Source: Betaproteobacteria bacterium (GTDB lineage: Bacteria > Pseudomonadota > Gammaproteobacteria > Burkholderiales > Ga0077523). Taken from it: a DNA stretch of 64,000 nt. A program made the translations under genes and the position numbers. Under the pieces are notes generated by a model, which did not search any database, had not been told where the DNA came from, and worked only from the letters and a program-made list of their open reading frames with translations. The DNA is taken from positions 128,513 to 192,512 of the forward strand of contig JADJPK010000007.1 of assembly GCA_016713305.1 (NCBI GenBank), written 5' to 3'. This document shows, one piece after another, positions 5,309 through 61,224 of this stretch. Each line of letters starts with the position of its first letter. The first letter of the stretch is position 1.

Positions 5309-5311
5309 TAC

Positions 5312-6430: not shown

Positions 6431-6444
6431 GACTCTTGCGGTAG

Positions 6445-8183: not shown

Positions 8184-8190
8184 AGGTGCA

Positions 8191-8736: not shown

Positions 8737-8751
8737 CGGGGAGGGATCGCC

Positions 8752-10410: not shown

Positions 10411-10444
10411 CCTATCCACTACAGACACAGACGGAGGACGCGCA

Positions 10445-11724: not shown

Positions 11725-11737
11725 TCCAGGCCGATCG

Positions 11738-45480: not shown

Positions 45481-45487
45481 GGCAGGA

Positions 45488-45762
45488 TCCGAGAGGCGCG
45501 AAGGCGGCTCTCTCCTTCAGGGGAGGAGCGGAGGTGGGGGTGGGTCTTCCGAGAGGCGCGAAGCGCAAGTACCTCTCCTCCCCTTCAGGCCGGGGCCCCC
45601 GGAAAGTCGGAGGCTTTTCGGGGTGGAGTGGAGGAGCGGAGGTGGGGGTGGGCATTCCGAGAGGCGCGAAGCGCGAAACTCTCCTCCCTTCAGGGGAGGA
45701 GCGGAGGTGGGGGTGGGGTTCCGAGAGGCGCGAAGCGCAAGTACCTCTCCTCCCCTTCTGGC
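45488..45762. repeat. Four tandemly arranged REP-like hairpin repeat units
   Basis: TCCGAGAGGCGCGAAG occurs at 45488, 45548, 45656 and 45720. GGAGGAGCGGAGGTGGGGGTGGG occurs three times. Internal hairpins include GCGC-gaa-GCGC and CTCCTCCC-ttca-GGGAGGAG. Confidence 0.75.
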
Positions 45763-45818
45763 CGTTGCGCAAGGCCCGATTCCATTTGACGCTCCGGGCG
45801 AATGCCATTAGCCTCGTC

Positions 45819-45842
45819 CGCTATATAAATCGGGATATGACG
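45819..45842. promoter_or_regulatory. ModE-operator-like Mo-box CGCTATATAAATCGGGATATGACG overlapping the modB start
   Basis: The left half, CGCTATATA, equals the Mo-box half-site consensus as I recall it. It has 24-bp dyad architecture and overlaps the modB ATG at 45837. Confidence 0.6.
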
Positions 45843-46535
45843 TCAATGTGGGAGACAGGGGCGGGGCTTTCGGCCGCCGCGTGGACGCCGCTTGCGCTCT
45901 CGCTCAAGGTCGCCGGCTGGGCCACGGCACTGGTCCTGATCGCGGGCGTGGCGGTGGCCTGGCTGGTCGCGCGAGGGCGGTTCTGGGGCCGCGAGGTGTT
46001 CGATGCGCTCATGACGCTGCCCATGGTCATGCCACCCACGGTCCTGGGCTATTACCTCATCGTCCTGCTGGGGCGCCGGGGCTGGATCGGGCGCTGGCTT
46101 CATGAACAGTTCGACCTGGTCCTGATGTTCACCTGGCAAGGCGCGGTCATCGCCGCCGCCGTCGTCGCGTTCCCGCTGGTCTACAAGGCCGCCCGCGCCG
46201 CTTTCGAGGAAGTCCCCCGTCAGGCCGAGAACGCGGCCCGCGTGTTGGGCGCAACGGAGTGGGACGTCTTCGTCCGGGTGACGCTTCCCCTCGCGTGGCG
46301 GGGCATCCTCGCCGGAACCATGCTGGCGTTCGCCCGGGCACTTGGGGAATTCGGCGCCACCCTCATGGTGGCCGGGAGCATCCCCGGCAAGACCCAGACG
46401 CTGTCCATCGCGGTCTACGAGGCCGTGCAGGCCGGGCAGGACGATCAGGCGAACTTCCTCGTGGCCATCACCTCGCTCGTGTGCATCCTCGTGCTGGTGG
46501 GGTCCGGCCGTCTTCTGCGGGTGCGTACCGCTTGA
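45837..46535 (+). CDS. modB: Molybdate ABC transporter permease ModB
   Basis: Five or six TM helices and a CysTW/ModB-type loop ([41 protein letters not shown]). An alternative ATG exists at 45846. Confidence 0.85.
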
Positions 46536-47301
46536 AGCTGGAAATCTCGATCCGCCGGCAGTTTTCCTCCAACGGCCACCGCTTCGAGCTCGATGCGCAA
46601 GTGAGCTGCGAGCACGACGTCACGGTCATCTTCGGCCCGTCGGGCTCCGGCAAGAGCGTCACGCTGCAGGCCGTTGCCGGCCTGATGCGCCCGGACTCCG
46701 GCTTCATCCACCTGGGTGACCGGGCATTGTTCGACTCGGCCACGGGAGTCGACGTCCCCACGCGCGAACGCCGCGTGGCCTATGTCTTCCAGGACTATGC
46801 GCTGTTTCCCCACCTGAGCGTCGAGCGCAACGTGGCGTTTCCGCTCAGCCGCTGGTGGCAGTGGGGGCTGCCGGCTGGAGTGCGGGACCGCGTCCGCCGC
46901 ATGCTGGACACCTTCGAGATCGGACATCTCGCGCAGGCGTATCCGGGGCAATTGTCCGGGGGCCAGCGGCAACGGGTGGCGCTCGCAAGGGCGCTGGTAG
47001 GCGAACCGGAAATACTGCTTCTGGACGAACCGTTCAGCGCGCTGGACCCGCTGTTGCGCGAACGCATGCGACACGAACTGCTCCGCCTGAGGGAGCGATT
47101 CCACGTTCCCATGGTCGTCATCACCCACGATCCGGACGATGTCGCCGGCCTGGCCGACGAGGTCATCGTCTTCCGTGAAGGCCGCGTCGCCGCGACCGGC
47201 GATGCGCACGAGTTGCTGTCGCACGTGGAATCCGGTCCGCAGGTGCGCCGCGCCATGCGGAGGTTTCTCGCTCAAGCCGTGGAAGTGGAAAAAATATCAG
47301 G
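46532..47301 (+). CDS. modC: Molybdate ABC transporter ATP-binding protein (ModC-like); 3' end uncertain
   Basis: The TTG start overlaps the modB stop. It has Walker [24 protein letters not shown] and [11 protein letters not shown]. As read, the ORF runs on to 47689 through Cys/Arg-rich sequence. An A6 run at 47287-47292 precedes a TGA at 47299-47301 in the -1 frame, which I take as the likelier end. Confidence 0.7.
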
Positions 47302-47367
47302 TGACGTCCCGTGTTGCGGCCACCGCGCGACCGGAAATCCGTCACCTCTGACTACCCGGCATTCTCG

Positions 47368-47397
47368 CAATTCCCGTTCGTGGACGGGAAAATTGCC
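47368..47397 (+). terminator. Stem-loop downstream of modC
   Basis: GCAATTCCCGT-tcgtgg-ACGGGAAAATTGC forms an 11-bp stem with a 2-nt bulge. There is no U-tract. Confidence 0.3.
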
Positions 47398-47532
47398 GGT
47401 GGGGCGCTTGTCAGTCACATCTCCTTGCACCATATTGGCTTCAGATCCGACGCTGTCGAAGCGGTGCTCGCGTGCGTGCGCGTGCGGCTGCCGGGTACGG
47501 AAGCGCCGGACCCACTACAAGGAGAACGTCGA

Positions 47533-50119
47533 ATGCCCAGGGAAGGGATGTGCGTCCTGGACGCCTCCGGGCGTCTGCACGACGCCAACGACTCGCTGGC
47601 CGAACTGTTGCAAGCGGCCCGTGCCGATCTGGTCGGCAAGTGCCTTCTCGACCTTCTTCCGTCCGCCGGCGAACGTGTGCGGGCGATGATGGCGGCCCTG
47701 GGCTCCGGCGCAACCCGGTCCGTCGACGTCACGTTTGGAGGCACGGGCGCCGCGGCGCGTGACGTGCGGGTGACGCTCGCCCGCCTGTCGGGCGATTCGT
47801 TCTGCGCGACGTTCCGGGATCTGCCGATCTCTCCCGCCGACCTGGCCAGCGTGAAGGACTCCGAGGCGAAATTCTCGGCCGCCTTCCAGGGAAGCGTGGA
47901 TCCCATGGTCATCGTGCGGACCGAGGATGGTCTGATCCTCGACGTCAATCTGGCCTTCGAACAGTTGTTCGGCTATACGCGGGAAGACGCCATCGGCCGC
48001 CGCGTGCCCGAACTCGGCTTGTCGGTGGATCCGCATTTCAGGCAGCGGGTTGTGGAGGCACTGCGGTCCGGCGGACGGATGCGCGACGAGCCTTGGACGC
48101 TGCGAACCAAGTCGGGAGAAGTGCGGGAGGCATTGCACAGCGCATTCCTGATCTCGCGCGAAGGCGAGATGCGGCACGTGGCGGTGATCCGCGACGTGAC
48201 CGAACAGCGGGCGCGGGAGCGCGAGTTGCGCGAATCCGAGGCCAAGTTCTCGGCGGCGTTCCACGCAAGCGTCGAGGCCATGGTCATTTCCATGCTCGAC
48301 GACGGCCGCATCGTGGATGTGAACGAAGCGTACGTCCGCCTGACCGGCTATTCCCGCGAGGAGCTCATCGGCAGGACGACCCTGGAGATGGGGATCGTTG
48401 CCGATCCGGAGGGTCGCGCGTCCCGCGCAAACATGATGCGAGCCGAGGGGGCGGTGCGCGACGTGCCGTCACCCACGCGACGGCGCGACGGCGAAATCCG
48501 CGAATGCCTTCAGACGAGCTTCGGCATCGAGATCCGCGGCGAGCCCGGATGGGTGTCGGTACTGCGTGACGTCACGGACATCCGCCGTGCGGAGCGTGCA
48601 TTGCGGCAATCCGAAGCCAGGTTTCACGCAGTATTCCGCGGCAGCCCCGATCCGATCGTGATCAGCCACATGGACGACGGCGTAGTGGTCGATGTCAATC
48701 CCGCGCACGAGGTGCTGACGGGGTATTCGCGCGAGGAGATCGTCGGGCGCAGCGTCATGGACCTGGACATCGTCGATCTGCCGAAGCGCTCCGCGCTCGT
48801 GCAAGAGGTGCGCCGCCATGGCTTCGTCAAGGAATGGGAGTACACCAACAGGCACCGCTCGGGCGAAGTGAGGTTGTGCCTTCAGTCGAGTTTCCGACTG
48901 GATATCGGTGACGACGACTGCATGGTGTCGATCGTGCGCGACGTCACCGAGCTGCGCCGTATCGAGGCCGCGGTCCGGACGAGCGAGGAACGCCTGCGGC
49001 AAGCGGTGCGGGCATCCGCGATCGGCATCTTCGATCACGACCATCGCGCGGACACGATCTACTGGTCGCCGGAACAGCGGGCGATCTACGGATTCACGGC
49101 CGACGAGCCTGTCGATATTCCCCGCTTTCTGTCAAGCGTTCATCCCGCCGACCTCGACCGCATCGGAGCCGACGTGCGCCGGGCCCACGATCCGTCGGGC
49201 GACGGACTCTTCGACGTCGAGAAACGTATCGTCCGGCGCGACGGAGCCATACGGTGGATCGCCACCCGTTCGCAGACCTTCTTCGAGGGGCAGGGAGAGG
49301 CGAGGCGGCCTGTCAGGACCGTGGGCGCGGTGCTCGACGTCACGGAGCGAAAGCATATCGACGAGGAACTGCGACGCCTCAATGAGGAACTGGAAACCCG
49401 TGTGGCAGAGCGCACCGCCGAACTGGAACGCGCCAACCGGGACCTCGGAATCGTTCAGCTACTCCATTTCGCACGATCTGCGTGCGCCGTTGCGGCATGG
49501 TGGGTTACATCGACATGTTCGAACGCGACCTGCCGTGCCGCTGGACGACACGTCCAAGCGCCGTCTGGACGTGATCTCCGATGCCGCGCGCCGGATGGGG
49601 ACCATGATCGACAGTCTGCTGGCCTTCGCCAGGATCGGGCGGGCCGCGATGCAGTTCTCGGCCGTGGACGTGAATGCCGTCGTGGGGGATGTCCGGATGG
49701 AACTCAGGCCGGACACGGACAACCGCCAGATCGAGTGGGAGGTTGCGGAACTCCCGACCATCACGGCGGACCGGACCCTGCTCAAGATGGTGTTCTCCAA
49801 CCTCGTGTCGAATGCCATCAAGTTCACGGCAGAGCGTGCGCCGGCCCGCATCGGCATCGGCGCTCACCGCGCGGATTCCGGGTGGGTCTTCTTCGTGAGC
49901 GACAACGGCGCGGGGTTCGACATGCGCTACGCGGACAAGCTCTTCGGGGTCTTTCAACGGCTGCATAGCGCCGACGAGTTTCCCGGCACCGGCATCGGAC
50001 TCGCGAACTGCCGCCGCATCGTCGAGCGTCACGGCGGACGCATCTGGGCCGAAAGCGAACCCGGCGTAGGAACTCGCATTCTGTTCCTTGTTCCCGATCT
50101 CCCTCAACGAGCAGGCTGA
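47533..50119 (+). pseudogene. Multi-PAS (five PAS) sensor histidine kinase, frame broken in the H-box region
   Basis: AAGGAGAA lies upstream of the ATG at 47533. Five PAS modules are followed by ..ELERANRDL | ESFSYSISHDLRAPLRH | MVGYIDMFERDL | PLDDTSKRRLDVI.. read in frames 1, 2, 0 and 2. The HATPase boxes are VSNAIKFT, DNGAGFD and GTGIGL. The breaks are near 49446-49449, 49494-49499 and 49529-49534. Confidence 0.85.
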
Positions 50120-50121
50120 CC

Positions 50122-50568
50122 ATGCAACCGAAGCGAATCCTTCTGGCCGAAGACGATCCCAACGATCGCGAGCTGACGGTCACGGCGTTGCAGGAGTATC
50201 GGCTTTCCAACGAACTCATTGCAGTGAAGGACGGCGCGGAAGCCCTGGACTATCTTCTGCGGCGCGGTCAATACGCCGGCCTGCCGCCGGGCAATCCGGC
50301 CGTGGCCCTGGTGGACCTGAAGATGCCCCGCATGGGGGGCTTGGAAGTCCTGCGCGAGATCCGGGCGACGCCTTCATTGCGGATGCTTCCCGTCGTCATC
50401 CTCACTTCGTCGAAGGAAGAGGCGGACGTCGCCGACAGCTACGGCCTCGGCGCCAACGCCTATGTCGTGAAGCCCGTCGACTTCCACGACTTCGTCGACG
50501 CCATCAAGACGGCCGGGCTGTTCTGGGCCGTCCTCAACGAGCCGCCGCCCGGAACAGTCGCCCCCTGA
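50122..50568 (+). CDS. Single-domain response regulator (CheY-like receiver)
   Basis: LLAEDDPND, VDLKMP (phospho-acceptor Asp), TSS and KP motifs. It starts 2 nt after the kinase stop. Confidence 0.85.
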   Translation: MQPKRILLAEDDPNDRELTVTALQEYRLSNELIAVKDGAEALDYLLRRGQYAGLPPGNPAVALVDLKMPRMGGLEVLREIRATPSLRMLPVVILTSSKEEADVADSYGLGANAYVVKPVDFHDFVDAIKTAGLFWAVLNEPPPGTVAP

Positions 50569-50575
50569 GCCCGCG

Positions 50576-53229
50576 ATGCAAGCACCAGCACTGCCCCGCT
50601 TGCGGGTCCTGCATCTCGAGGACGATCCCTGGACTGCGACATCGTGCGCGACCGGCTGCGCCAGGAAGGCATCGAATGCGACGTGCAGTGCGTCGCGGGC
50701 AGGAGCGAGTACTCGGCGGCCCTCGAGGCTTTCGCCCCCGATCTGATCCTGTCCGATCACGCGCTGCCCGGGTTCGACGGTGTGTCGGCTCTGCGGATGG
50801 CCAGGTCGCTGCGGCCGGCCGTGCCGTTCATCTTCGTCTCCGGCGCCATTCTCGAGGACGAGGCGATCGAGATGCTCAAGCAGGGGGCCACCGACTACGT
50901 TCTCAAGAACCATCTGGGCCGGCTCTGTCCCGCCGTGCGCCGGGCGTTGCAAGCGGCGCGGGAACAGGACGAACGCCAGCGCGCTCTGCGCCGCGCTGCG
51001 AGACAGCGAGCGGCTGCTGAGGCAGATCATCGATCTGGTCCCGCACTTCATCTTCGCCAAGGATACGCAGGGCCGTTTCCTGCTGGCCAACCAGGCGGTC
51101 GCCGACGCCTACGGGGCGACCGTGACCGAACTGCTGGGCCGGTCGGATGCGGATTTCCGGCGGCCGGAGGCCGAGACCGCGCGCAGTCTCGCGGAGGACC
51201 GCGCGGTCATGGAAGTGGGGTGCGGCAAGTCGGTTGTCGAAGAAACGGTCACCGGCGTGGGCGGACTCGCCCGCATCGTGCAGACGACCCGCATTCCGTT
51301 CGCCGTGCCGGGCAAGGCCGAGCGCGCAGTCCTGGGCGTGTCCAGCGACATCACGGAACTGCGCTTGGCCGCGACCGCGTTCCAGTCGCACGAAGGCATT
51401 TTCATTACCGATGCCGACGGCGTGATCCAACGCGTGAACCGCGCGTTCCTGGACATCACCGGGCTGTCCGCGGATCGGGCGCTGGGCATGCGGGCCACCG
51501 AACTGTTCGTGAACGGAGAGGGGTCCTCTCCGAGCCAGTGGTCCGCTTTCGTGATCAGCGGCAGCACGTACTGGCAGGGAGAGGCCCAGGCGAGACGCGT
51601 CTCCGGCGACGTGTATCCCATCTGGGAAACGATCACCGCCGTCCGGCGCGACGACGGCGCGGTGACGCACTACGTCTGCCATTTCCAGGACATCAGCGAA
51701 CGCAAGCAGATCCAGGAGCGCATCGAGTACCTCGCCTTCCACGATTCGCTTACCCATCTGCCCAACCGCTCGCTGCTCATGGATCGCTTGCAGCAGGCCA
51801 TCGCGCGCAATCGCCGGCGCGGGCTTTCGGGCGCGCTGCTCTATCTGGATCTGGACCACTTCAAGAACATCAACGATTCGCTCGGGCATCCAACCGGCGA
51901 TCTGCTCCTGTGCGACGTCGCCCGCTGCCTTCTCGCCCAGGTGCGGAGCGAGGACACGGTGGCGCGGCTGGGAGGCGACGAGTTCGTGGTGCTCCTGCCT
52001 CAGCTCGAAGGGGCGCGCGACGCGGTCGCACGCGAGGCGCGTGCCATCGCCCAGAAGATCCGCGAGGCGCTGTCCGGGGACTTCATCATCGCCGGCGACC
52101 GGCTTCGGGCCAGTGCGAGCATCGGTGTGATTCTCTTCCCCGAGGGCGAGGAGACTGCCGACGACATCCTGCGTCACGCGGACATCGCGATGTACCAGGC
52201 GAAGGCGGCGGGCCGGAACACGGTGCGATTCTTCTCGCCGGAAATGCAGGCAGCGGTCAGCGAGCGGCTGCTGCTGGAAGGTCAGCTTCGCGATGCGGTC
52301 GTCCGTCAGGAGTTCATCGCCTATTTCCAGCCGCAGATCGAGCTGGCCACCGGCCGGCTGTTCGGAGTGGAAAGCCTGCTGCGCTGGCAGCATCCGGCCC
52401 ACAGTCTGCAGCCCCCGTCGTCGTTCATCCCCCTTCTCGAGGACACCGGCCTCATCCTGCCGGTGGGCCAGTGGCTGCTGCGGCACGTGTGCGAGACGCT
52501 GGGCGCACTGAAGGCCAAGGGTCACCATGTGCGGGCGGCGGTGAACGTGAGCCCGCGCCAGTTCTACCAGGCGGATTTCGCCGACCGTATCCGCGATGTG
52601 CTGGAGGAAACGGGCACGTCCCCGGAGACCCTCGAACTGGAGATCACCGAGAGCGCGGTCATCGACGACATCGACCACACCATCGGCATCATGCGGCGTT
52701 TGAAGGACCAGGGAGTCCGCTTCTCCCTGGACGACTTCGGCACCGGATACTCGTCCCTGAGCTATCTCAAGCGGCTGCCGCTCGACACGCTGAAGATCGA
52801 CCGTGCGTTCGTTCGAGATTGCACGACCGATGCCAACGACGCCGCGATCGTGCGGGCGATCCTCGCCATGGCGTCGAGCCTGGGGCTCGAAGTGGTGGCA
52901 GAGGGTGTGGAGACGGGGCCCCAGCTGGAATTCCTGCGGTCGCTGGGCTGTGCCTCGTACCAGGGGTATCTGTTCAGTCCGCCGGTGCCGCTGGACAGGC
53001 CGGCCGCACTGCTCGACGATCGCGCAGGCTCCGGCCGCCAGAGCAAAGTCCGGATCAACGTGCGCGGCCTCGGCCGGGGCCCGGTTTCCACTTCGCCACC
53101 CGCGCGGCCCTCGCGTGTTCCGGCGGAAGTGCGATCCGTGTGCACGGATTGCACATCTTCCTGCTCATGGCGGCGTGGCCGCTTCCTCCCCCCGATCCGG
53201 TTTGGTCGCAGGCTCCACGCCGGCCATGA
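50576..53229 (+). pseudogene. Receiver-PAS-PAS-GGDEF-EAL c-di-GMP signalling protein, frame broken; 3' end unresolved
   Basis: MQAPALPRLRVLHLEDDP | LDCDIVRDRLRQEG..ILSDHALPGFDG.. | ..LRDSERLLRQIIDLVPHFIFAKD.., then RLGGDEFVV, ESLLRW, DDFGTGYSS, EGVET and QGYLFS. The breaks are near 50627-50630 and 50975-50995. The domain frame has no stop until 53776. The earliest stop in any frame is at 53227-53229. Confidence 0.8.
53129..53154. terminator. Strong hairpin between the convergent GGDEF-EAL and ModE-like genes
   Basis: GTGCGATCCGTG-..-CACGGATTGCAC forms a stem of about 11 bp including one G-T pair. There is no U-tract on either strand. Confidence 0.3.
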
Positions 53230-53578
53230 GCGACGCAAAGGCCTCGACCTCGGCTTCCACCGACTGCAGCGCCTTGCTCTCGAGTTCGCGGAACCGGCCG
53301 AGAATGTCGCGCCCCAGGTCCGTGAGCATGGCGCCGCCGCCGCCATCGCCCCCGACCTTGCAGTCGATGAGCGGCGACGGGAACATCATGTTCAGCTCCT
53401 CCACCAGGTTCCATGCACGGCGGTAAGGCATGTCGATGCGTCGCGCCGCCGCGGTGATGGAGCCGGTGGCGGCGATGGCCTCCAGCAGCGCGGCCTTGCC
53501 AGGGCCGAACGCAAGCGCGTGACGAAAGCTGATCTGGACCGTGCATGGCCGCGGCGTTGCGGGAACTGGAGTTGGCAC
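53165..53578 (-). CDS. ModE N-terminal-domain-only regulator, paralogue 2
   Basis: GPGKAALLEAIAATGSITAAARRIDMPYRRAWNLVEELN..GGDGGGGAMLTDLG aligns along its length with the protein at 37711-38097. The GTG start lies 12 nt after the DUF1111 stop. Confidence 0.6.
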   Translation of the reverse strand: MPTPVPATPRPCTVQISFRHALAFGPGKAALLEAIAATGSITAAARRIDMPYRRAWNLVEELNMMFPSPLIDCKVGGDGGGGAMLTDLGRDILGRFRELESKALQSVEAEVEAFASLMAGVEPATKPDRGEEAATPP

Positions 53579-53590
53579 GGTGACGTGGCA

Positions 53591-54995
53591 TCAGAGGGAT
53601 TCCAGGAAACGCACCAGGGCGCTACGGTCGGTGAGGGGCGCGAGACGGAACGATTCGCGCGCGGGACGCGCCTGACCACCGTGCCAGAGGATCGCCTCCT
53701 GCAGCGTGCGTGCGCGGCCGTCGTGCAAGAAGCCCGCACGAGGGTTCACCACGTGAGCCAGTCCGATGCCCCATAGCGGTGGTGTACGCCAGTCGCCGCC
53801 CGACGCCGCGAAGTCCGGCCGGCCATCCGCGAGATCAGGTCCCAGGTCGTGGAGGAGGAGATCGGAGTAGGGGCGGATGGTCTGTCGGGAAAGCTGCGCG
53901 AAACGGGGGATTGCCGGTCGTCAGTTCCGGTACATGGCATTGGGAACAACCGAAATCGTTGAAAAGGTGCTCGCCGCGAAAGACGTCGGGTACGCGTTCG
54001 CCTCGGCGCGCCGGGACGGGCAGCAGACTCATGTAGACCGTCAGGTCCTCCAGTTGCCTCGCGTCCAGTTCAGGCGTGCCGCCGTGAGGTGCGCGTGCGC
54101 ACTCGACCTGCGGAGCTGCGCAGTTTTCCGTCCGGAACAGGTCGGAGGTGATGCCCATGTCGCCCCAGGCAGCCGCGGCGTTCTGCTGCCGCAGGTGCGG
54201 CTGGTTGGACTTGAGCCCGAACCGGCCCGTCACGAGTTCGCCCTTGCGCACGTCTAGTACCCTGTTGACGCGGCTCGCACCCATGCCGGGCCTTTCGGCG
54301 AGGGCGCGCAAGGTGGTTTCGTCCACGGCCTCCAGCAGCCCCAGCCCGTACACCGGAGGGGCAACGCGGGCAGACATCAGCAATTGCACCTTCGGCGCGC
54401 CGAAACGCAGGTTGTGCAGGGTGAACACCGGGCGGCGTAGTTCCACGGACTCTCCCCCGGCAAGTGTGACGCGCTCGATCGTGTACGTGACGCGGGCCTC
54501 CCCCTCACCCGGTATGCCGGGGATGCCCGACTCGTTGATCTGGTCACCGTAGGCCGGATGAGGATGCGGGGGTTCATCCGGAAGTGCGCCCGGCTGGCTG
54601 ATGCGCATGAGCATGGCGCGCATTTCCTCGTCCGGACCGTCGGGCGCAAAACCACGCCCATTTCTGACGTGACATGCGCCACAGGACATCCGGTTGTAGA
54701 CGGGACCGAGACCGTCCACGGCTGCGTCCTCCGATGGTGCAACGACCCAGACTTGGCGGAACAGACTGCGTCCACGGAGAAAGGAGGCGCGCAGGTCGTC
54801 AGGAAGGCCCTCGGGGGCGAGGGAATAGGCGTCGCGGTGTTCCGCTCGCACGGTGAGCGATCCGCCGGCGCCACGCATCGTCCCCTCAACGGAATCGATA
54901 CCGGACCAGGATGCCGAAACGCAGAACGACAGGCCGAGCAGCGCGGACGTGCAACGGGCTGCAGGGGCTCGGAGGCGTACCGTCCTTCCCGACAA
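53591..54995 (-). pseudogene. Di-haem cytochrome c / DUF1111 family (putative peroxidase or thiol oxidoreductase), frame broken
   Basis: Two CxxCH sites (CGACHV, CSQCHVP). The C-terminus (QTIRPYSDLLLHDLGPDLADGRPDF..WRTPPLWGIG..FLHDGRARTLQEAILWHGG..) lies in another frame, ending at 53591. The break is in the run at 53898-53910. The 5' end (TTG 54995, which gives a signal-like ALLGLSFCVSASW) is tentative. Confidence 0.75.
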
Positions 54996-56307
54996 TGTCG
55001 GCAAGCCGGGTTGCGGCCGCCCGGGTGTGCACGTCGAAGAACCTGTCCCATTCGCGTTCGATCTCGGCTGCCCGGGCAAGCGCACGTGGGTCGCCACGGC
55101 GCCGCTCATCGAACGTGCGGTTCAGGTTGGCGTCCGCTGCCTGTTCGGCATTCAAAGGGAGCGCTTCGAGATGCCGGGTGGCGTCTTCGATCGCCTCCCG
55201 GCCGGCCCTGTCCGGACGGACTGCGTAAGCCTGTTCCGCTCGCCTGAGCTTTCGCAGCGCGTCGCGCAGGATGGGCTGTCGACGCGTGATCATCGCGTCG
55301 AAAAGCGCGGCGACGACGAGGGATCGCGCGATGCCTGTCGCCGGGTCGTAACGCAGCGCCAAGGCGTCGGGCGCGTCGAACGGACTGAGGCCGAAGGCGG
55401 ACGCATCCTGGTAAGACGATGGTCGCACGGATAGCTTGGCCACATCCGCGTCACCCAGGAGCTGCTGACCTTCGGGTGAGAGCAGAAATGCGACGAAGCG
55501 GTGCGCGGCCGCCGGATGCGCCGCATGGGTCAACACGCCGACGTGCGCGAACGAGTACCCGTTCGCCGTGGGACGCGTGAGGACGAACGGGGCTCCATTG
55601 GCGATGGCAGAACGAGCGAAGAAGTCGATGGTGAGGCCAACTGCCGCTTCGCCGCCACGTAGTTCATCGGAGATGAACGCGCCGCTGCCGTCGATCAACC
55701 GGTTGAATGCGGCGATACGCGACAGGAGAGACCAGCCGTCGCGCCATCCGAGGGACTGCAGCACACCGTCGACCAGGGTCGAGGCGAAGCCGACCTTCGA
55801 CGGAATGGGGAACAACACCAGGCCATCGAATCGTTCGTCGGCAAGATCCGACCACTCGCGCGGAATCGGCAGTCCGTGTACGGCCAGCGTGGCAGGAGCG
55901 CTGACGATGCCGAAGCTGGCCATCTCCACGCCCTCATACCGGCCCTGCGGGTCGGAGAACTGAAGCGGGCCGGCACGCCCGGGAAGCTGCGTGCGGTCGA
56001 CATCCAGGACCGCAAGCAGGCCTTCGTCCGAGAGGGCGATGAAGTTCCGATAGGCGGGGGACCAGTAGACATCGATTCGCGCATTCCGGTCACTGCGCAA
56101 CGAGGGAAGCGCGTCGTGAGGCATGCGCCACACGAATTGGATGTCGATGTCCGGATTGGCACGTTCGAACGCAGCTTCGAAACGGCTGAACACCTCCTCT
56201 GGATAGCTTGTGAGGACGACGACGTCCTCGCGTGCGTAAGCGGGAGAAAGAAGCGCGATTGCGAACGCCACAAAGACGTGCAAGACAGGGCAGGACAAGA
56301 GGCGCAT
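54886..56307 (-). CDS. Periplasmic solute-binding protein (Fe3+/FbpA-like PBP fold) with helical C-terminal extension
   Basis: Signal peptide MRLLSCPVLHVFVAFAIALLSPAYA followed by VVVLTSYPEEVF..IDVYWSP..GVLTHAAHPAAAHRFVAFLLSPEGQ. No cognate permease or ATPase is adjacent. The last ~35 codons overlap the next gene and may be spurious. Confidence 0.7.
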   Translation of the reverse strand: MRLLSCPVLHVFVAFAIALLSPAYAREDVVVLTSYPEEVFSRFEAAFERANPDIDIQFVWRMPHDALPSLRSDRNARIDVYWSPAYRNFIALSDEGLLAVLDVDRTQLPGRAGPLQFSDPQGRYEGVEMASFGIVSAPATLAVHGLPIPREWSDLADERFDGLVLFPIPSKVGFASTLVDGVLQSLGWRDGWSLLSRIAAFNRLIDGSGAFISDELRGGEAAVGLTIDFFARSAIANGAPFVLTRPTANGYSFAHVGVLTHAAHPAAAHRFVAFLLSPEGQQLLGDADVAKLSVRPSSYQDASAFGLSPFDAPDALALRYDPATGIARSLVVAALFDAMITRRQPILRDALRKLRRAEQAYAVRPDRAGREAIEDATRHLEALPLNAEQAADANLNRTFDERRRGDPRALARAAEIEREWDRFFDVHTRAAATRLADIVGKDGTPPSPCSPLHVRAARPVVLRFGILVRYRFR

Positions 56308-56389
56308 GAATTACTCCGAAAGCGCCGAAAACCGGCGGGAGATGGACGTGATCCTCCGTGCCATTTCTGCCAGGACAGCGCTTTCTTCT

Positions 56390-56413
56390 CGATATGTTGA
56401 CACAAATATAACG
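56390..56413. promoter_or_regulatory. ModE-operator-like Mo-box CGATATGTTGACACAAATATAACG between the TonB receptor and binding-protein genes
   Basis: It has the same 7-N10-7 dyad as the other three boxes and lies 83 nt upstream of the binding-protein ATG. Confidence 0.5.
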
Positions 56414-56465
56414 AACGCGATCGGGTGTCGAATCGGCACGGAAATATTGCTGCGGGGCCTGGAGC

Positions 56466-58474
56466 TCAGAAGCGATAGGAAGCATTGGCGAAGAGCGAAC
56501 GTCCGGGATTCGGAAAGCCGAAGTCCAACTGGTAGTTCTTGTCCAACAGATTGGTCACGCCCACTTCGGTCGAGACGTTGCGAACCGGTCGCCAGGTCAG
56601 CTTGACATTGAGCACGGCGAAACCGCCGACCTTGACGGTGTTGCTTGCCCAGCGGCCGCTGAACTGCTCGCCGAACGCGGTGACGTCCAGGGACTCGGCG
56701 GGCCGCCAGATCCCGAACAGCGTCAGTTTGGCCTGAGGAATGCCTGTCAGGCGCACGCCAGGATTCCTCTCGTTGCGCAGATGGAGGAATGTCGCGTTAC
56801 CGCCGAGTTCCAGGGATGTACCGACAGTAGAGCGCAAGCCGTCTCCGCGCCGACGATGCGGACCTCCGCCGACGTTCTGCTGCTGACAGAGGTTCGTCGA
56901 CGAGCAGGTGGCTGCGCCGTTCAGATTCACGCTCTGGATCTTGTCTTCGATCTTGTTCTGGAACAGCGCGAACTCCGCCTGTGCCGCGCCCCATGGGCGC
57001 CCCTGGTAGCCGACTTCGAAATTGCGTGCCTGTTCGGCGCGCAGGCTGGGGTTTTCGACATACGTATTGAGCCGCTGCGAATAGCGATCCTTGAGGGTCG
57101 GCAGGCGTGTCTTCTCGGCGAAGGTCGCGTACAGCCTCGCTGTCGGCGACAAGTCGTGGAAAAGACCGAATTGGGGATCGTTCGCTGTCTGCCTGCCGGG
57201 CAGTGAATAGGTCGGACCGGCGCCCGACTTGTAGACCCGGTCTGGATCGAGCGCGTGATGGGAGAATCCGATGGAGAGCGTGGTCCCGTCTCCGACGGAG
57301 ACCGCATCCTCGACAGCGAAGGTGCGAAGCGTGTCCGAGAAGTCTGCCCCGATAGCCGCGTTGGCATCTGTTTCCTCATGCTGGTCGCGCTTGTACTGGG
57401 CAATCAGCCGGACGGTGTTGCCAGGGAAGCGCCGGGATTCGAGCTCGATCGACCCGCCGAACGTGCGGTCCTCATAGATGCTGCGTCCCGTGGAGACACT
57501 GCCCGGACCGCTCGTCCTGAGCACCGAATAGCTTGCGTCCGTGAAGGTGTCGACCTCGTTGTCGAACTTGTCCAGGTACAGACGCAAGCGCAGGGACTCC
57601 CGCTCTCCAAGGCCGGTTCGTGAGATGAAGTAGAGGCTCTCCTTGTCCCAGAATGGCCACTGCCCGAAGCGGGCGGAAGCCGGGTCGGTCGAGGGTGGCT
57701 GTCCCTTCTTGCCGTTCTGCTGGAGATACGTGAGGGCGTACTCGTCGTCTCCCCGTGGGGTGAAGCCCAGTTTCAGCGACACCTTGTCGTCGCGGAAATG
57801 CGAGTTATTCCGCGTATTGCCGTCCTCTGTGGCGGTGGGCTGAAATCCGAAGACATCCGGAATCCGTCTGCGTCACGATACGAGACGCCTGCCTGGACGT
57901 ACCAGCGCTCGTGCCGGCTGCCCACGTTCGCATCGGCCCGATGCGCGTTCCCCTGGCCGATGCCCACGGTAACGTCGCCTTCCAGTTCCCGCGAGGGACG
58001 TCGCGAGATGAGATTGATCGCACCTCCCAGGGTGTTCGGTCCATACGCCACCGAGCTGAATCCCTTGGCCACCTGGATGCCGGAGAGATCCGCAGTTGCA
58101 AAGCGGCCGAAGTCGACATAGCCATCGTAGGGCACGTAGACCGGAATGCCATCTATGAACAGGGGCGTCTGGCGAGGGTCGTACCCCCGCATGTATACGG
58201 TTTGTTCGTTGCGGACATTGCTCGTGACCGCGATGCCAGACAAGAGGTTCAGCGCATCGCTCACCGTGGGCCGGTCGAATCGGCGGATCTCGTCTGCCGT
58301 GACGACGGACGAAACCTGTTCCGAAAGGATCTCGCCGACCTCGGGTCGCTTGGCCGTGACGAGAACCGTTCCGAGATGGAACACCCCGGCATCGGCGGCG
58401 AGTGCCGTGCAGGGGACCGAGAGGGCGAACACCGTGAGACACGACGTACGTGACATGAAATGGCCCTTGGGCAT
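56466..58474 (-). pseudogene. TonB-dependent outer-membrane receptor, frame broken
   Basis: The N-terminal part has a signal peptide (..CLTVFALSVPCTALA) and a plug (VTADEIRRF..YMRGYDPRQTPLFIDGIPV..GGAINLISRRP) in ORF 57773-58798. The barrel in ORF 56466-57782 ends in ..NASYRF. The break is in a C-run (minus strand) at 57836-57841. An alternative start exists at 58456. Confidence 0.85.
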
Positions 58475-58586
58475 GTCGACGGTTTCTCGGCCAGCCGCGT
58501 GTCCTCGATTGGGGCCGCTCTTGCGATACGGCAGGCGGATTTCGGATTCGGCACGACGCGACGCGCGAGTCATGCCGGTAGACAGG

Positions 58587-58610
58587 CCGGCAATTGCGTT
58601 ATAGTGTGCA
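58587..58610. promoter_or_regulatory. ModE-operator-like Mo-box CGTTATAGTGTGCAGAATATAACG upstream of the TonB receptor
   Basis: Perfect 7-bp inverted repeat CGTTATA/TATAACG with a 10-nt spacer, 113 nt upstream of the receptor ATG at 58474. Confidence 0.6.
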
Positions 58611-58721
58611 GAATATAACGATAGGCGGCAACATCCATCTCCATTTTTTGGGTTCGATGGATGCACACGGACGCCAAGATTCGCGAGGACACTGATCGCG
58701 CGCATCTGATAGTTGACATTG

Positions 58722-58745
58722 CGATATGTCCGGAACAACATAACG
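58722..58745. promoter_or_regulatory. ModE-operator-like Mo-box CGATATGTCCGGAACAACATAACG upstream of the porin-modA operon
   Basis: It has the same dyad architecture. It overlaps a possible TTGACA (58713-58718)-N17-CAACAT promoter and lies 100 nt upstream of the porin ORF. Confidence 0.55.
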
Positions 58746-58845
58746 CGGCATCCAGGCGCAGGTTCTTCCGCATCGGACTCGGGTTGACGGTGGGCCAACC
58801 GTCGAAACGCGGAGGACCTCCCGCGCCAAAAGGCGGTGCGGCCCG

Positions 58846-60434
58846 GTGAGGGGGCCGGCTGGGATCGCCCACGCAGCGGCTGCCGATGAACCGGAACCCA
58901 CCCTCAAGCGTGTGCAGCAGCTCGAATCCGTGGTGGAATCGCTGGCGGCGCAGCTGGATGCACTTCGCCTTGAACTACAGAACGCCAGACGTGAACTCGA
59001 AGCCGCCCGTGGGACGGCTACGCCTGCCGAGGCTCCGCCGGCCGGGCATGCCGCGGATCTGCCTCCCACCCGGCGCGAGTTGAATGAAGCGCTCGCCACA
59101 GCACAGGAGGCGAAGGAACAGGCCGCCTCCATCCAGCAACGCTTCGACCAGCAGGGGGTGCAGGCGAGCTTCACGGACGGCCTCACCTTCCAGGACCCGC
59201 GAGGCCGCTGGACGCTCAAGATGATGGGGAGGGCGCAGCTGGATTACCGCCATTTCCTCGGCGCCGAAGAAACGCTCGCCGACACCTTCAGCGTCCGCCG
59301 AGCCCGGCTGGGGGCGCAGGCCACGCTGTTCAAGGACTACCTGGTCCAAGTGGAAGGCGAGTTTTCGGGCAGCTCGGTCACCATGACCAACGGCTTTCTC
59401 GAATTGCAGTGGTTCCCGCGGCGAAGGTCCGCATGGGGCAGTTCAAGCCGCAGTTCGGTCTGGAGCAGACTCTGCTCGACTTGCAGAGCGATTTCCAGGA
59501 GCGATCCCTCACCCAGAACCTGCTCGACGGCAACGGTCTCAACTACGACCGGGGAATCATGGTTCACGGCGCACCGTGGAAGCCTGTCTACTACGCCGTG
59601 ATGGTGTCCAACGGGACGGGCGTGGGGCTGGACGAGCAAGGCCGCAACGCCTCCGAGGCCCGTGCGGACAGCAAGGATGTCACCTTGAGAGGTGTCGTCG
59701 ACTTCGCTCAACTGATCGACGTGCAGGACGCGGTCCTGCACGCAGGGTTGTCCTGGAAGTCAGGCAAGCAGGCCAACAGGCAGACGGCGCAGGCGGACGC
59801 CTTCGCCGCGCCGGCGTTCCGGACCGAGTCTCGCGGACTGACGTTCTTCACGCCGCAGTCTTTCTTCGGCGCGGGCGGCACGACGGGCGAGATCGAACGT
59901 ACGCTCCAGGCGTTCGAGATGTCGACCTCCTGGCGGTCGCTGCGTTTGACCGGAGAGTGGTGGAAGGGGACCTATGCGGGTGCCAGAACCCCCACGGCTG
60001 GAACCCCGGCGGAGTTCTCGCGCGACATTACGGCCAGTTACGTGAGCCTGCTGTGGCTCGCCAGTGGCGAGGTATGGTCCGACTACTACGGTGGCGGCTA
60101 CTGGCAGAAGGTGCGGCCCAACAACCGCTTCTCGTTCGAGCCGGGCGGGGGCTGGGGTGCGTGGGAGCTGGGTCTGCGCTACAGCCAGATGAATGCCTCC
60201 GACTTTCGCGGCACGAACGGCGCGGGTACTGGCCAGGTGTCCGCCACTGCCCCGGTGACTCAGGCGACCACCAAGGCCGACGCCTGGACGGCACAGATCA
60301 AGTGGATCCAGAACAACTACGCGCGCTGGCTGCTGAGCTACGTGCAGACGCGGTTCGATACGCCGGTCCTCGTCAACGGGGTGGCGATAGAGCGCGAGGA
60401 GGCCATCCTCTTCCGCGCACAGGTGGATTTCTGA
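58846..60434 (+). pseudogene. Phosphate-selective porin O/P (OprO/OprP) family anion channel, frame broken; 5' end unresolved
   Basis: Coiled-coil N-terminal region, then FTDGLTFQDPRGRWTLKMMGRAQLDYR..ELQWFP | AAKVRMGQFKPQFGLEQ.. through to ..ILFRAQVDF. The break is at 59416-59422. A signal-peptidase-like AHA-AAADE site is present, but no intact signal peptide or start codon could be found upstream. Confidence 0.75.
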
Positions 60435-60468
60435 TGATTACCAGAACGATGCAAGGCAGGAACCCGAA

Positions 60469-61224
60469 ATGAAGCGATTGAAGAACCTGATGTGTGCCGT
60501 GCTGCTGGGAACGGCTGCCGCAGGGAATGCCATGGCGGCGGACATCACCGTTTCCGCGGCATCGAGTCTGACCAACGCCTTCCAGGAGATCGGACGGCAG
60601 TTCGAGAAGGAACGCCCTCAAGACCGTGTCCTGTTCAACTTCGGATCCTCCGGGCAGTTGGTGCAGCAGATCGTCCGCGGAGCGCCGGTGGATGTGTTCG
60701 CTTCGGCCGACGAGGACTCCATGAACAAGGCGGAGAAGGAAGGGGCGATCGACCGCCCGTCTCGATTCGATTTCGCTCGCAACCTGCTTGTGCTGATCGT
60801 GCCGGTGGATTCGCGACTCACCGTGCGGACACTGCGTGACGTCTCCCAGCCGGCCTTCGGGCGGATCGCCATCGGCAATCCGGACTCGGTCCCAGCCGGG
60901 CGGTACGCCAAGGCGGCCCTGGAAAAGGCGGGCCTCTGGAGCGCGTTGCAGGACCGGCTCGTCAACACCGTGAATGTCAGGCAGGCGCTCGACTACGTGG
61001 CACGCGGCGAGGCCGACGCGGGATTCGTCTATGGCAGCGACGCCAGGCTCATGCCCTCCCGCGTGAGATCCGCGCTGGAAGTGGAGGTGCCGCAGCCGAT
61101 CCTCTATCCGGTGGCTGTCGTGAGGGGCGGCGGCAACAGGAGCGGAGGCGCGGCATTCGTCGCCTATCTCAAGTCAAGGGCCGCACTGGACATCCTGGTC
61201 AAGTACGGATTCCAGACGCCATGA
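60469..61224 (+). CDS. modA: Molybdate ABC transporter substrate-binding protein ModA
   Basis: Signal peptide followed by ITVSAASSLTNAF..FNFGSSGQL..VFASAD..IGNPDSVPAGRYA..VRQALDYVARGEADAGFVY. Confidence 0.9.
   Translation: MKRLKNLMCAVLLGTAAAGNAMAADITVSAASSLTNAFQEIGRQFEKERPQDRVLFNFGSSGQLVQQIVRGAPVDVFASADEDSMNKAEKEGAIDRPSRFDFARNLLVLIVPVDSRLTVRTLRDVSQPAFGRIAIGNPDSVPAGRYAKAALEKAGLWSALQDRLVNTVNVRQALDYVARGEADAGFVYGSDARLMPSRVRSALEVEVPQPILYPVAVVRGGGNRSGGAAFVAYLKSRAALDILVKYGFQTP

Follow-up and report, generated by a model that had tools for sequence, protein, structure and literature searches.

A TonB-dependent receptor, binding protein and di-haem protein module with predicted molybdenum control

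The locus and its reading frames

The window, that is, the whole 64,000 nt stretch of DNA analysed here, contains four minus-strand genes beside a divergent porin-modA operon. Profile searches place their products in the families named in the original prediction: a TonB-dependent receptor (TBDR; Plug/PF00593), a periplasmic binding protein (SBP; SBP_bac_6/SBP_bac_11), a di-haem oxidoreductase (DHOR; PF06537) and a ModE-type regulator (ModE_repress, TIGR00637). The features are as follows.

44392-47275, plus strand: ModE N-domain/PBP-like fusion regulator (44392-45480), Mo-box 4, modB-like and modC-like genes (about 45900-47275)
45819-45842: Mo-box 4, 5′ of modBC
53165-53578, minus strand: regulator with a ModE N-terminal domain only, winged helix without Mop/TOBE (TIGR00637, E 3e-22; PF00126)
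53591-54965, minus strand: di-haem oxidoreductase DHOR/DUF1111 with two CxxCH motifs (PF06537, E 6.6e-37)
54886-56307, minus strand: periplasmic binding protein, about 446 aa in relatives (Pfam SBP_bac_6/SBP_bac_11)
56390-56413: Mo-box 2, read on the minus strand as CGTTATATTTGTGTCAACATATCG, 83 nt 5′ of the SBP ATG at 56307
56466-57842, minus strand: TBDR beta-barrel part, C-terminus ...SYRF (PF00593, E 2.4e-26)
57843-58456, minus strand: TBDR N-terminal part with signal peptide, TonB box GTVLVTA and plug (Plug PF07715, E 4.5e-19)
58597-58620: Mo-box 1, read on the minus strand as CGTTATATTCTGCACACTATAACG, 141 nt 5′ of the receptor ATG at 58456
58722-58745: Mo-box 3, CGATATGTCCGGAACAACATAACG, 2 mismatches, in the divergent intergenic region on its porin-modA side
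58846-61224, plus strand: divergent porin (Porin_O_P family) and modA operon (modA TIGR01256, 219 bits; cutoff 62.5)

Read from its sequence, the receptor carries a TonB box and a C-terminal aromatic residue, and intact orthologues of 663-664 aa occur in the related loci L002 and L077. Between the DHOR stop (53591-53593) and the regulator's GTG start (53578) lie 12 nt, the spacing reported before. A ModE-N-only gene also lies 3′ of DHOR in L002, L005, L006, L039 and L077. The layout of porin and modA is the same in L002 and L077, and this operon is part of the same Mo-regulated region as the TBDR-SBP-DHOR genes. The binding protein had been described as having no permease or ATPase. This is true of its operon but not of the window, where a modB-like permease and a modC-like ATPase at about 45.9-47.3 kb form the only inner-membrane importer near the module.

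The 64 kb were scanned for Mo-boxes with the pattern CGNTATAT-N8-ATATANCG, allowing up to 2 mismatches. Four sites were found against 0.01 expected, three at the module locus and the fourth 5′ of modBC. The experimentally known modA operator of Escherichia coli (CGTTATATTGTCGCCTACATAACG) matches the pattern with 1 mismatch, and the half-sites of Mo-box 1 are near-identical to it. Thus the two boxes first pointed out, before the receptor (58597-58620) and before the SBP gene (56390-56413), were both recovered, and two further sites were added. Mo-box 3 has a counterpart in L002, which also keeps Mo-box 2 (4987-5010).

Over the coordinates first given, none of the four genes is an uninterrupted open reading frame (ORF), and disruptive indels are present in every one. 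Compared with L001 and L077, a 1-nt deletion at 57842 splits the receptor into ORFs 57773-58798 and 56466-57782, and a compensating +1/-1 indel pair (56867/56840) scrambles 9 codons. At about 54963-54967 the overlap of SBP stop and DHOR ATG, an ATGA in L001 and L002, is lost; the SBP ORF therefore reaches 54886 and is 27 codons longer. DHOR has an additional 2-nt deletion at 53909, its C-terminal part being intact in a second frame that ends ...FLESL. The regulator carries a +1 insertion at 53541, just past the natural ATG used in relatives, and the porin is frameshifted by a 1-nt deletion at 59417. The genes are intact in contigs 97-98.5% identical to the window, including a DHOR that is 98% identical (P0121).

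One reading of these lesions is that the locus in this genome consists of decaying pseudogenes with no present function. Compared with such close contigs, receptor, SBP, DHOR, regulator and porin together carry at least six disruptive indels or codon losses, which would fit decay. So would the lost SBP stop and DHOR start, where substitutions are combined with a deletion in more than a simple homopolymer slip. However, the adjoining and unrelated histidine kinase and GGDEF-EAL genes are frameshifted at a similar rate, the indels fall mostly in short runs of G or C, as expected of assembly or sequencing error, and three independent metagenome assemblies of near relatives have the genes intact. 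Because the near-identical contigs are intact and unrelated neighbours are hit too, sequencing error is the likelier cause, and we consider decay doubtful. Real lesions would mean a dead module in this strain. The question has no bearing on the identity of the module in the many genomes with intact copies.

Related loci and their molybdenum context

A gene-neighbourhood survey of orthologues had been suggested, and was run on 73 related loci, 70 of them from species-level genomes. The receptor lies immediately 5′ of the SBP gene on the same strand in 68/73 loci, and DHOR is 3′ of SBP in nearly all. This triad was found in Burkholderiaceae, Oxalobacteraceae, Methylophilaceae, Gallionellaceae, Rhodocyclales, Comamonadaceae, Pseudomonas, Azotobacter and Methylococcaceae. 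A strict Mo-box is present within 500 bp 5′ of the receptor at 45 of 68 loci, against 0.14 expected from composition-preserving block shuffles, and Mo-box density in this position is 1.85 per kb vs. 0.033 per kb elsewhere. The strict box is absent at the other 23, many of which have degenerate CGTTAT...ATAACG forms. Azotobacter vinelandii has neither a strict Mo-box nor mod genes nearby.

Full modABC is located within 10 kb at 31/71 loci. A Mo gene or a Mo-box occurs at 67/71, and just 4 have neither. In Azoarcus olearius BH72 the gene order is modE-modABC-receptor-SBP-DHOR. A Rhodoferax genome has modB-receptor-SBP-DHOR-Mop adjoining nif, with two Mo-boxes, and in Parasulfuritortus TonB-ExbB-ExbD immediately precede the triad. 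The survey thus supports molybdenum control, which is predicted from operator-like sequences. We did not find a Fur box (≤5 mismatches) 5′ of the receptor at any of the 68 loci or anywhere in the 64 kb window, which bears out and extends the earlier statement that the locus has no Fur-like sequence. Given this absence and the mod linkage, the orthologous operons do not look like a Fur- or iron-regulated set separate from mod genes, the pattern named beforehand as counting against a role in molybdenum.

The receptor is less constant than its partners. The two closest genome-derived relatives do not have it, and the SBP-DHOR pair is kept without a receptor in L005, L006 and L066; in L005 and L066 a Mo-box lies directly 5′ of SBP. 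Since the closest genome-derived relatives are receptor-less, the conserved core may consist of SBP and DHOR, a pair for which TonB-dependent import is not obligatory. The original reading as an outer-membrane uptake module for Mo(W) stands in part: Mo-boxes and mod linkage support control by molybdenum, but the receptor is missing from the two nearest genome-derived relatives.

The binding protein and the di-haem protein

The SBP is 99% identical to the related protein P0001 over 94% of its length. It has the FbpA/AfuA fold, to which a helical domain of about 110 aa is added at the C-terminus. The AF2 model (pLDDT 90) has VcA0625 (8x1a), AfuA and HitA as its top PDB matches, and comparisons with FbpA, AfuA and P5PA gave Foldseek E-values between about 1e-12 and 2e-15 and profile E-values as low as 5e-21. 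The description of the protein as FbpA-like is thus correct for the fold but not for the iron ligands: the Tyr-Tyr pair that binds iron in FbpA is replaced by an invariant Phe-Phe in this family. The AfuA residues for sugar-phosphate (His205/Asp206 and Thr150) are not conserved in the SBP, the Thr150 position being an invariant Phe, and the invariant residues as a whole are rich in Trp and Phe. Because both the FbpA Tyr and AfuA Thr150 positions are invariant Phe and the invariant residues are so aromatic, the predicted pocket fits an organic or hydrophobic ligand better than bare Fe3+, sugar-phosphate or an oxyanion by itself. The profile and structure searches gave no curated family and no solved structure from which a ligand could be assigned. 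Several sources label the family "PgtC" or "regulatory lipoprotein," and one relative is fused to a TorS-type sensor domain.

DHOR has a distant di-haem peroxidase-type fold. An 844 aa protein exists in which SBP and DHOR are fused. Chromate is an analogue of molybdate and sulfate. A binding protein of Pseudomonas putida F1 (Pput_0948) and the adjacent DUF1111 protein (Pput_0949) were upregulated after chromate exposure (PMC2996968); we note these genes as candidate counterparts of the SBP-DHOR pair, as a lead only. Free molybdate needs no redox step, and the role of DHOR in the module is thus speculative.

Interpretation and comparison with known systems

We favour, with a probability only slightly above even (about 0.55), the reading that receptor, SBP and DHOR are a conserved module of the ModE (molybdate/tungstate) regulon, induced by Mo scarcity, that serves to bring Mo or W through the outer membrane. 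With ample Mo, the boxes before the receptor and SBP genes would be occupied by a Mo-loaded repressor of the ModE type; the ModE-N/PBP fusion (44392-45480) is a candidate, and so perhaps is the ModE-N-only protein encoded last in the operon. Under scarcity the operon would be derepressed along with porin-modA and modBC. The TonB-energised receptor would then import a Mo species that porins pass poorly, most likely Mo bound to an organic ligand, with thio- or reduced, non-molybdate Mo also possible. The SBP would trap this species in the periplasm, and DHOR, translationally coupled to SBP, may oxidise the ligand or the metal species, freeing molybdate to enter the cell through ModA and ModBC. 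We did not find a description of such a module in the searchable literature. Sites for a Mo repressor before the triad, here and in dozens of bacteria, point to an undescribed, energy-driven entry of Mo across the outer membrane.

The receptor could instead import free molybdate or tungstate at very low concentration, the SBP being a high-affinity trap that feeds ModA/ModBC or docks on ModBC. The haem protein would be accessory or protective in that case. Mo-boxes and mod linkage also fit free-oxyanion uptake, ModBC is the sole inner-membrane importer nearby, SBP_bac_11, which the SBP matches, is a Pfam family that includes ModA, and the porin-modA pair near the receptor-less L006 suggests a porin-sized substrate. 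However, the SBP is almost double ModA in size, the proteins of solved structure closest to it bind organophosphates or Fe3+ and not an oxyanion, and its invariant residues at pocket positions are aromatic, unlike the hydrogen-bond donors typical of oxyanion sites. To our knowledge, there is no TonB-dependent receptor for a free oxyanion. Uptake of this kind also leaves the strictly co-inherited di-haem enzyme without a job, and we judge it unlikely.

A role in Mo sparing or as a back-up, with repression by ModE at Mo sufficiency and no import of Mo, is more improbable still. ModE is established as a repressor of Mo-independent back-up systems, including the alternative nitrogenases (vnf/anf; PMC9542535), which gives this idea its precedent. 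One example would be a periplasmic oxidoreductase pathway built on haem that stands in for a molybdoenzyme, its organic substrate being supplied by receptor and SBP; the organophosphate ligands of the nearest solved SBP relatives agree with it. Alternatively the SBP could be a sensor, as the family's "PgtC" and "regulatory lipoprotein" names and the TorS-type fusion in one relative would allow. However, the conserved neighbours of the triad include no histidine kinase or further signalling partner, there is no evident molybdoenzyme for the module to replace, and acquisition explains better than substitution why the triad so often lies in or beside modABC, modE and Mop genes.

Iron uptake as in imelysin/EfeO-like-DUF1111 operons, with DHOR oxidising Fe2+, SBP binding Fe3+ and the Mo-boxes incidental or due to cross-talk, draws on the FbpA superfamily fold, on the proposal that DUF1111 is the peroxidase partner of a putative operon for ferrous-iron uptake (bioRxiv 10.1101/072470) and on the receptor's best NCBIfam matches (generic siderophore/haem subfamilies, all far under cutoffs), but is very improbable given the missing Fur boxes, the Phe-Phe in place of the iron ligands, Mo-box conservation far above chance, and conserved neighbours among which mod genes recur and no imelysin or DUF1513 gene appears.

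The proposed Mo acquisition module is closest in its control to the ModE regulon and ModABC of E. coli, Rhodobacter and Azotobacter. Both share one type of palindromic operator (CGnTATAT-N8-ATATAnCG), and the module sits with, and is apparently co-regulated with, modA, modBC and modE-type genes. Canonical descriptions of ModABC, in contrast, include neither an energised outer-membrane step nor a second large binding protein, and they lack a haem enzyme. The local regulators differ from ModE in lacking Mop domains, one being ModE-N only and the other a ModE-N and PBP-like fusion.

The MbnT-MbnP-MbnH copper system consists of a TBDR, a periplasmic metal-related protein and a di-haem MauG-like c-type enzyme that are encoded together. 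The proposed module would resemble it in this three-part logic in a metal-responsive context. It differs in that a class II periplasmic binding protein takes the place of MbnP, in that DHOR (PF06537) bears only a distant resemblance to the CCP/MauG fold, and in both metal and regulator; nor does anything in the present data point to a modified partner protein. Operons of imelysin/EfeO-like proteins with DUF1111 and DUF1513, and EfeUOB, likewise pair a DUF1111 di-haem protein or peroxidase with a periplasmic metal-binding partner, and a mechanism of oxidation followed by binding has been proposed for the imelysin/EfeO-like-DUF1111 systems (bioRxiv 10.1101/072470). The module, however, has no imelysin or DUF1513, a Mo-box and no Fur box, and as partner an FbpA-fold SBP without iron ligands.

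With FbpA, AfuA and P5PA the SBP shares its fold and lobe architecture. It differs from them in the Phe-Phe pair, the lack of AfuA's His205/Asp206/Thr150, the added helical domain of about 110 aa, and the lack of a dedicated permease and ATPase encoded with it. Lastly, ZnuD under Zur, the copper receptors OprC/NosA and the nickel/cobalt receptors are, like the receptor here, TBDRs behind an operator for the repressor of the cognate metal. The predicted metal of this module, unlike theirs, forms an oxyanion and has no described TonB-dependent route, and the module adds an SBP and a di-haem enzyme to the receptor.

Gene content, Mo-boxes and reading frames of the window locus

Four co-oriented genes lie on the minus strand of the window at 58456-53165, encoding a TonB-dependent receptor, a periplasmic binding protein (SBP), a di-haem DUF1111 protein (DHOR) and a small regulator. 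The Pfam and NCBIfam assignments agree with the families given to these genes in the original prediction, which had also placed a porin-modA operon back-to-back with the locus, and a porin and a true modA are indeed transcribed divergently from the receptor. No NCBIfam family reached its cutoff with the receptor, the SBP or DHOR.

Features of the window locus
58456-53165, minus strand, four co-oriented genes in the order of the next four lines
minus strand, TonB-dependent receptor; plug PF07715 (E 4.5e-19) and beta-barrel PF00593 (E 2.4e-26), Pfam
minus strand, SBP; SBP_bac_6 / SBP_bac_11 (Pfam), periplasmic solute-binding
minus strand, DHOR/DUF1111; PF06537 (E 6.6e-37)
minus strand, regulator, small HTH protein of 137 aa; ModE N-terminal repressor domain TIGR00637 (E 3e-22), NCBIfam
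divergent from the receptor, porin of the Porin_O_P family and modA (TIGR01256, 219 bits against a cutoff of 62.5)
43619-44326, minus strand, NuoE/FdsG-type 2Fe-2S protein, NAD-formate-dehydrogenase-type subunit (PF01257, E 7.6e-42)
44392-45480, regulator with a ModE-N domain fused to a PBP-like domain
45819-45842, Mo-box upstream of modBC
56390-56413, SBP Mo-box, 83 nt upstream of the SBP ATG, 1 mismatch
58597-58620, receptor Mo-box, 141 nt upstream of the receptor ATG, 1 mismatch, CGTTATATTCTGCACACTATAACG
58722-58745, Mo-box on the porin-modA side

The receptor matches the N-terminal plug domain and the beta-barrel domain, 22-stranded in TonB-dependent receptors, and both domains are present in its orthologues of 663-664 aa. 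A signal peptide is followed by the TonB box GTVLVTA (within ...HLGTVLVTAKR...), and the protein ends in an aromatic residue (...ASYRF), as is usual for TonB-dependent receptors. The SBP had been described as lacking a cognate permease and ATPase. This is true of the operon, with modB and modC found elsewhere in the window; neither the window operon nor any related locus has permease or ATPase genes alongside the SBP, and the only recurrent transporter neighbours of the SBP loci are modB and modC.

The regulator at the end of the operon scores 78.5 bits against TIGR00637, below the curated cutoff of 98.5, and its 137 aa have no match to PF03459 (Mop/TOBE, the di-Mop molybdate-binding domain). 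Thus, it is not a full-length ModE. With the ModE-N domain only, this protein cannot sense molybdate by itself, and may be a feedback or competitor element at the Mo-boxes. A more plausible sensor is encoded about 7 kb beyond the operon, on the side opposite porin-modA, together with a modB-like permease and a modC-like ATPase. This ModE-N/PBP-like fusion (44392-45480) carries a PBP-like domain in place of the Mop domains, and NCBIfam matches its C-terminal part to the corresponding end of a molybdopterin biosynthesis protein (NF011068). Its Azoarcus counterpart carries Pfam PBP_like (PF12727), and in Azoarcus olearius a similar gene adjoins the receptor-SBP-DHOR triad (L076, 12714-13817). We take the window fusion to resemble TunR-type regulators, which respond to tungstate or molybdate. 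The adjacent 2Fe-2S gene (43619-44326) probably marks the start of a leftward NAD-dependent formate dehydrogenase operon beside a Mo regulator, which makes this a Mo-centred gene neighbourhood. A cluster of direct and inverted repeats occupies 45480-45770, between the ModE-N/PBP gene and the modBC Mo-box. It is G-rich and REP-like, with a unit of about 56 nt present three times and units of 31 nt and 19 nt present four times each.

Mo-boxes were called with the pattern CGNTATAT-N8-ATATANCG, allowing up to two mismatches. The pattern matches four sites in the 64 kb window vs. 0.01 expected, and the boxes predicted to precede the receptor and SBP genes are both among them. As a positive control, it recovers CGTTATATTGTCGCCTACATAACG, the well-known E. 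coli operator located 20 nt ahead of modA; the half-sites of this operator are almost identical to those of the receptor box. A sigma-70 consensus scan of the window at 53-59 kb gave no promoter-like sites, and a convincing terminator was not found in the receptor-SBP gap of the window.

Over the coordinates of the original prediction no gene is an uninterrupted ORF, as all four carry disruptive lesions in the window. The lesions were called against three metagenome contigs, two of which (L001 and L077) are 97-98.5% identical to the window at the DNA level and the third (L002) 82%, with an SBP protein 80% identical to that of the window. One close contig is from an activated-sludge metagenome, and its nearest named ModA is 75% identical. 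Going by such relatives, the window belongs to an uncultured, Burkholderiales-like betaproteobacterium. All of the genes are intact on these contigs (porin, 545 aa; receptor, 663-664 aa; SBP, 444-446 aa; DHOR, 429-460 aa; regulator, 126-141 aa).

Reading-frame lesions in the window
59417, 1-nt deletion in the porin
57842, 1-nt deletion that splits the receptor, relative to L001, L002 and L077
56867/56840, +1/-1 indel pair that scrambles nine receptor codons
about 54963-54967, SBP stop and DHOR start, which overlap as ATGA in relatives, both lost
53909, 2-nt deletion in DHOR
53541, +1 insertion in the regulator, directly past its natural ATG

These interruptions raise the question of whether the Mo locus is dead in the source strain, a matter independent of what the module does. 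The frameshifts are not specific to the locus. Similar ones break two unrelated neighbours, a PAS histidine kinase gene (about 47311-50119) and a REC-PAS-GGDEF-EAL gene (about 50644-53100), and among the many 1-2 nt indels that separate window positions 46600-60500 from L077, most fall in short G or C runs. Because unrelated genes are also affected and the indels are concentrated in these runs, assembly or sequencing error is more likely than real decay as their source, and a dead locus is rather doubtful.

Operators and gene neighbourhoods across related loci

Seventy loci from species-level genomes were fetched with an alignment of seven SBP homologues, and further loci were added by exact protein look-up, so that 73 were compared for gene order. 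In 68/73 loci the SBP gene is directly preceded, on its own strand, by the receptor gene, and nearly all have DHOR after the SBP. The loci come from Pandoraea, Herminiimonas, Oxalicibacterium, Methylobacillus and other Methylophilaceae, Gallionella/Sideroxydans, Zoogloea, Dechloromonas, Azoarcus, Leptothrix, Pelomonas, Rhodoferax, the Pseudomonas putida group, Azotobacter vinelandii and Methylobacter. Culturable organisms with an intact module include Azoarcus olearius BH72, Pandoraea, the P. putida group, Methylobacillus and A. vinelandii, among others. One Methylophilaceae locus (L013) has, directly ahead of its full triad (8045-12624), a second and divergent SBP-DHOR pair (4578-7210) whose proteins are 31% and 49% identical to those of L002.

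At 45/68 loci the 500 bp upstream of the receptor contain a strict Mo-box (two or fewer mismatches), with no more than one mismatch at 32 of these, and the median distance is 146 nt. Boxes number 1.85 per kb in the receptor-upstream regions and 0.033 per kb over the remainder of the 1.4 Mb of sequence from the loci. When the upstream regions were shuffled in 40-nt blocks, which keeps local AT-richness, 0.14 loci had a site. Several loci without a strict box, e.g., those of Gallionellaceae, have degenerate CGTTAT...ATAACG versions.

Clustering of every ORF in the loci gave only modA, modB, modC, full-length modE and ModE-N-only regulators as recurrent neighbours. The full modABC set is found within 10 kb at 31/71 loci. 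This count is conservative, since the "modC" members that stand alone at 10 loci, mostly of Pandoraea, probably encode a different ABC ATPase. One or more of modA, modB, modE and the ModE-N-only regulator genes occur at 43/71 loci, and only 4/71 have neither a Mo gene nor a Mo-box. The neighbourhood survey that the original prediction called for thus finds mod linkage to be common, and the predicted Mo control is strongly supported. By its operators and gene order the module is a putative member of the ModE regulon, conserved and physically associated with ModABC.

Individual gene orders illustrate the range. In A. olearius BH72 the order is modE-modA-modB-modC-receptor-SBP-DHOR, all co-oriented. 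In Rhodoferax, where the module adjoins draTG and nifHD, the order is modB-receptor-SBP-DHOR-Mop and the receptor is preceded by two boxes. In Parasulfuritortus cantonensis (L079, 1-9350), TonB-ExbB-ExbD genes are immediately upstream of the triad, and a second receptor gene (756 aa) also precedes it. Even at three mismatches this locus yields no Mo-box, and regulation may therefore differ in this lineage. The A. vinelandii triad (L075; CP092752.2, 5561962-5583263) is a notable exception, given the Mo-catecholate chemistry of Azotobacter. It sits beside the atp operon and lacks mod genes within 10 kb; upstream of the receptor there is just a weak TATAT...ATATA palindrome, at 45 nt.

The binding protein and its di-haem partner

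The SBP family comprises about 97 clusters at 50% identity (E below 1e-30), variously labelled "PgtC," "regulatory lipoprotein" or "Fe3+ binding protein" depending on the source. The AlphaFold (AF2) model (pLDDT 90) has a class II binding-protein core and a C-terminal helical domain of about 110 residues. A database protein of 795 aa (P0339) joins a related SBP to a periplasmic sensor domain of the TorS type, and a relationship between TorS-type sensor bundles and the C-terminal helices of the SBP family is possible. The fold is that of the FbpA group, with Foldseek matches to HitA (E 8e-15) and to other FbpA-type proteins down to about 1e-12. Among solved structures, the SBP is closest to VcA0625 and AfuA, which bind glucose-6-phosphate, and to P5PA, which binds pyridoxal phosphate; ferric-binding proteins come next.

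Two ligand types known from these relatives were considered and rejected on the basis of profile alignments. FbpA-type ferric binding appears not to apply, as the Tyr-Tyr (plus His/Glu) ligands are not kept and the YY pair of Campylobacter FbpA aligns with an invariant F229-F230 (DFF motif). AfuA binds the sugar through His205/Asp206 and the phosphate through Ser37/Thr150 (PMC4546632). The His205/Asp206 positions are a variable A/R in the SBP and Thr150 is an invariant F174, so that AfuA-type sugar-phosphate binding is likewise not predicted, at the level of the alignment. The SBP is therefore FbpA-like in fold only: that part of the original description stands, and the ferric ligands that the name would imply do not. 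In these alignments, many of the invariant residues are Trp and Phe, which hints at an organic or hydrophobic ligand and not a bare ion.

In DHOR, the haem-binding motifs C66xxCH and C311xxCH are invariant in 20 homologues, as are many His, Trp and Asp residues. A PDB sequence search found no relative. The DHOR model (pLDDT 78) bears only a remote resemblance to proteins of the di-haem peroxidase type, the best Foldseek matches being weak (hydrazine synthase gamma, E 6e-4; CcpA, E 0.05; TM-scores of about 0.25-0.34).

The SBP-DHOR pair is probably the functional core of the module, with the receptor a frequent, not obligatory, addition. We base this on the ATGA overlap of the two genes in close relatives, on the survival of the pair in three loci that have no receptor (L005, L006 and L066), and on an 844-aa database protein (P0254) in which SBP and then DHOR form one polypeptide, possibly a gene-calling artefact. 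The receptor looks like an add-on because L005 and L006, the closest genome-derived relatives, hold SBP-DHOR in its absence. At both loci the pair is flanked on either side by genes for ModE-N-only regulators, and in L006 a porin-modA pair lies downstream.

A proposed route for molybdenum and comparison with known systems

In the textbook scheme, molybdate uptake starts at the inner membrane with ModABC, and passage across the outer membrane is assumed to be passive. Mo is picomolar to low nanomolar in many habitats, or locked in organic or sulfidic complexes, and its supply limits nitrogen fixation, nitrate reduction and formate metabolism. Mo-catecholate chemistry is known in Azotobacter, where uptake of such complexes has long been proposed, and we know of no receptor identified for it. 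Chromate is an analogue of molybdate and sulfate. When P. putida F1 is exposed to chromate, the levels of two adjacently encoded proteins, a binding protein (Pput_0948) and a DUF1111 protein (Pput_0949), rise (PMC2996968); these are candidate orthologues only. A 2024 paper names molybdate as the only known bioavailable Mo source (PMC11484787), and an excerpt of a 2024 review of bacterial metal homeostasis describes Mo uptake via ModE and ModABC only. In the open-access full-text literature, with curated regulon databases (e.g., RegPrecise) outside the scope of the search, we found no paper on a TonB-dependent, Mo-box-controlled receptor/SBP/DHOR module.

We propose that under Mo or W scarcity the receptor would import a Mo species poorly handled by porins, the SBP would capture it, DHOR would oxidise the ligand or metal species to give free molybdate, and ModA and ModBC would complete uptake. 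We infer this whole scheme with a probability of roughly 0.55. More tentatively, the module could be the first dedicated TonB-dependent Mo (or W) pathway, in which the receptor imports Mo in forms other than free molybdate, such as a molybdophore/catecholate complex or organically bound, thio- or reduced Mo, and a binding protein of a new class works with the di-haem enzyme. That enzyme may liberate molybdate oxidatively for ModABC or, by analogy with MauG/MbnH, may oxidise an invariant aromatic residue of the SBP to create a Mo-binding site.

Other functions of the module are less probable. Import of the free oxyanion by the module is unlikely, and a Mo-sparing or sensory role unrelated to uptake is improbable. 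Iron uptake is very improbable: a scan with the 19-bp Fur consensus at five or fewer mismatches found no site upstream of the receptor at any of 68 loci and none in the window, on which iron regulation was rejected, and the Tyr-Tyr iron ligands of FbpA are replaced by Phe-Phe. The earlier reading of the locus as free of Fur-box-like sequence thus extends to the related loci, and the pattern named in advance as contrary to a Mo role, Fur or iron control that is never linked to mod genes, was not seen.

If the Mo uptake scheme is true, the module offers a genetic handle on bacterial access to other Mo pools, provides candidate genes for the Mo-catecholate uptake proposed in Azotobacter, and gives a functional context to one branch of the uncharacterised DUF1111 family.

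Several known systems are close to the module in logic. TonB-dependent receptors are controlled by metal repressors in the case of zinc (Zur), copper and nickel. With its receptor, its periplasmic protein and its MauG-like di-haem enzyme, the MbnT-MbnP-MbnH copper system would be an analogue of the triad. The imelysin-DUF1111-DUF1513 and EfeUOB systems are also similar in logic, and a mechanism of iron oxidation followed by binding has been put forward for them (bioRxiv 10.1101/072470). The module belongs to none of these. It would extend TonB-dependent metal scavenging under a metal-specific repressor to Mo, with an unusual pair of binding protein and di-haem protein.
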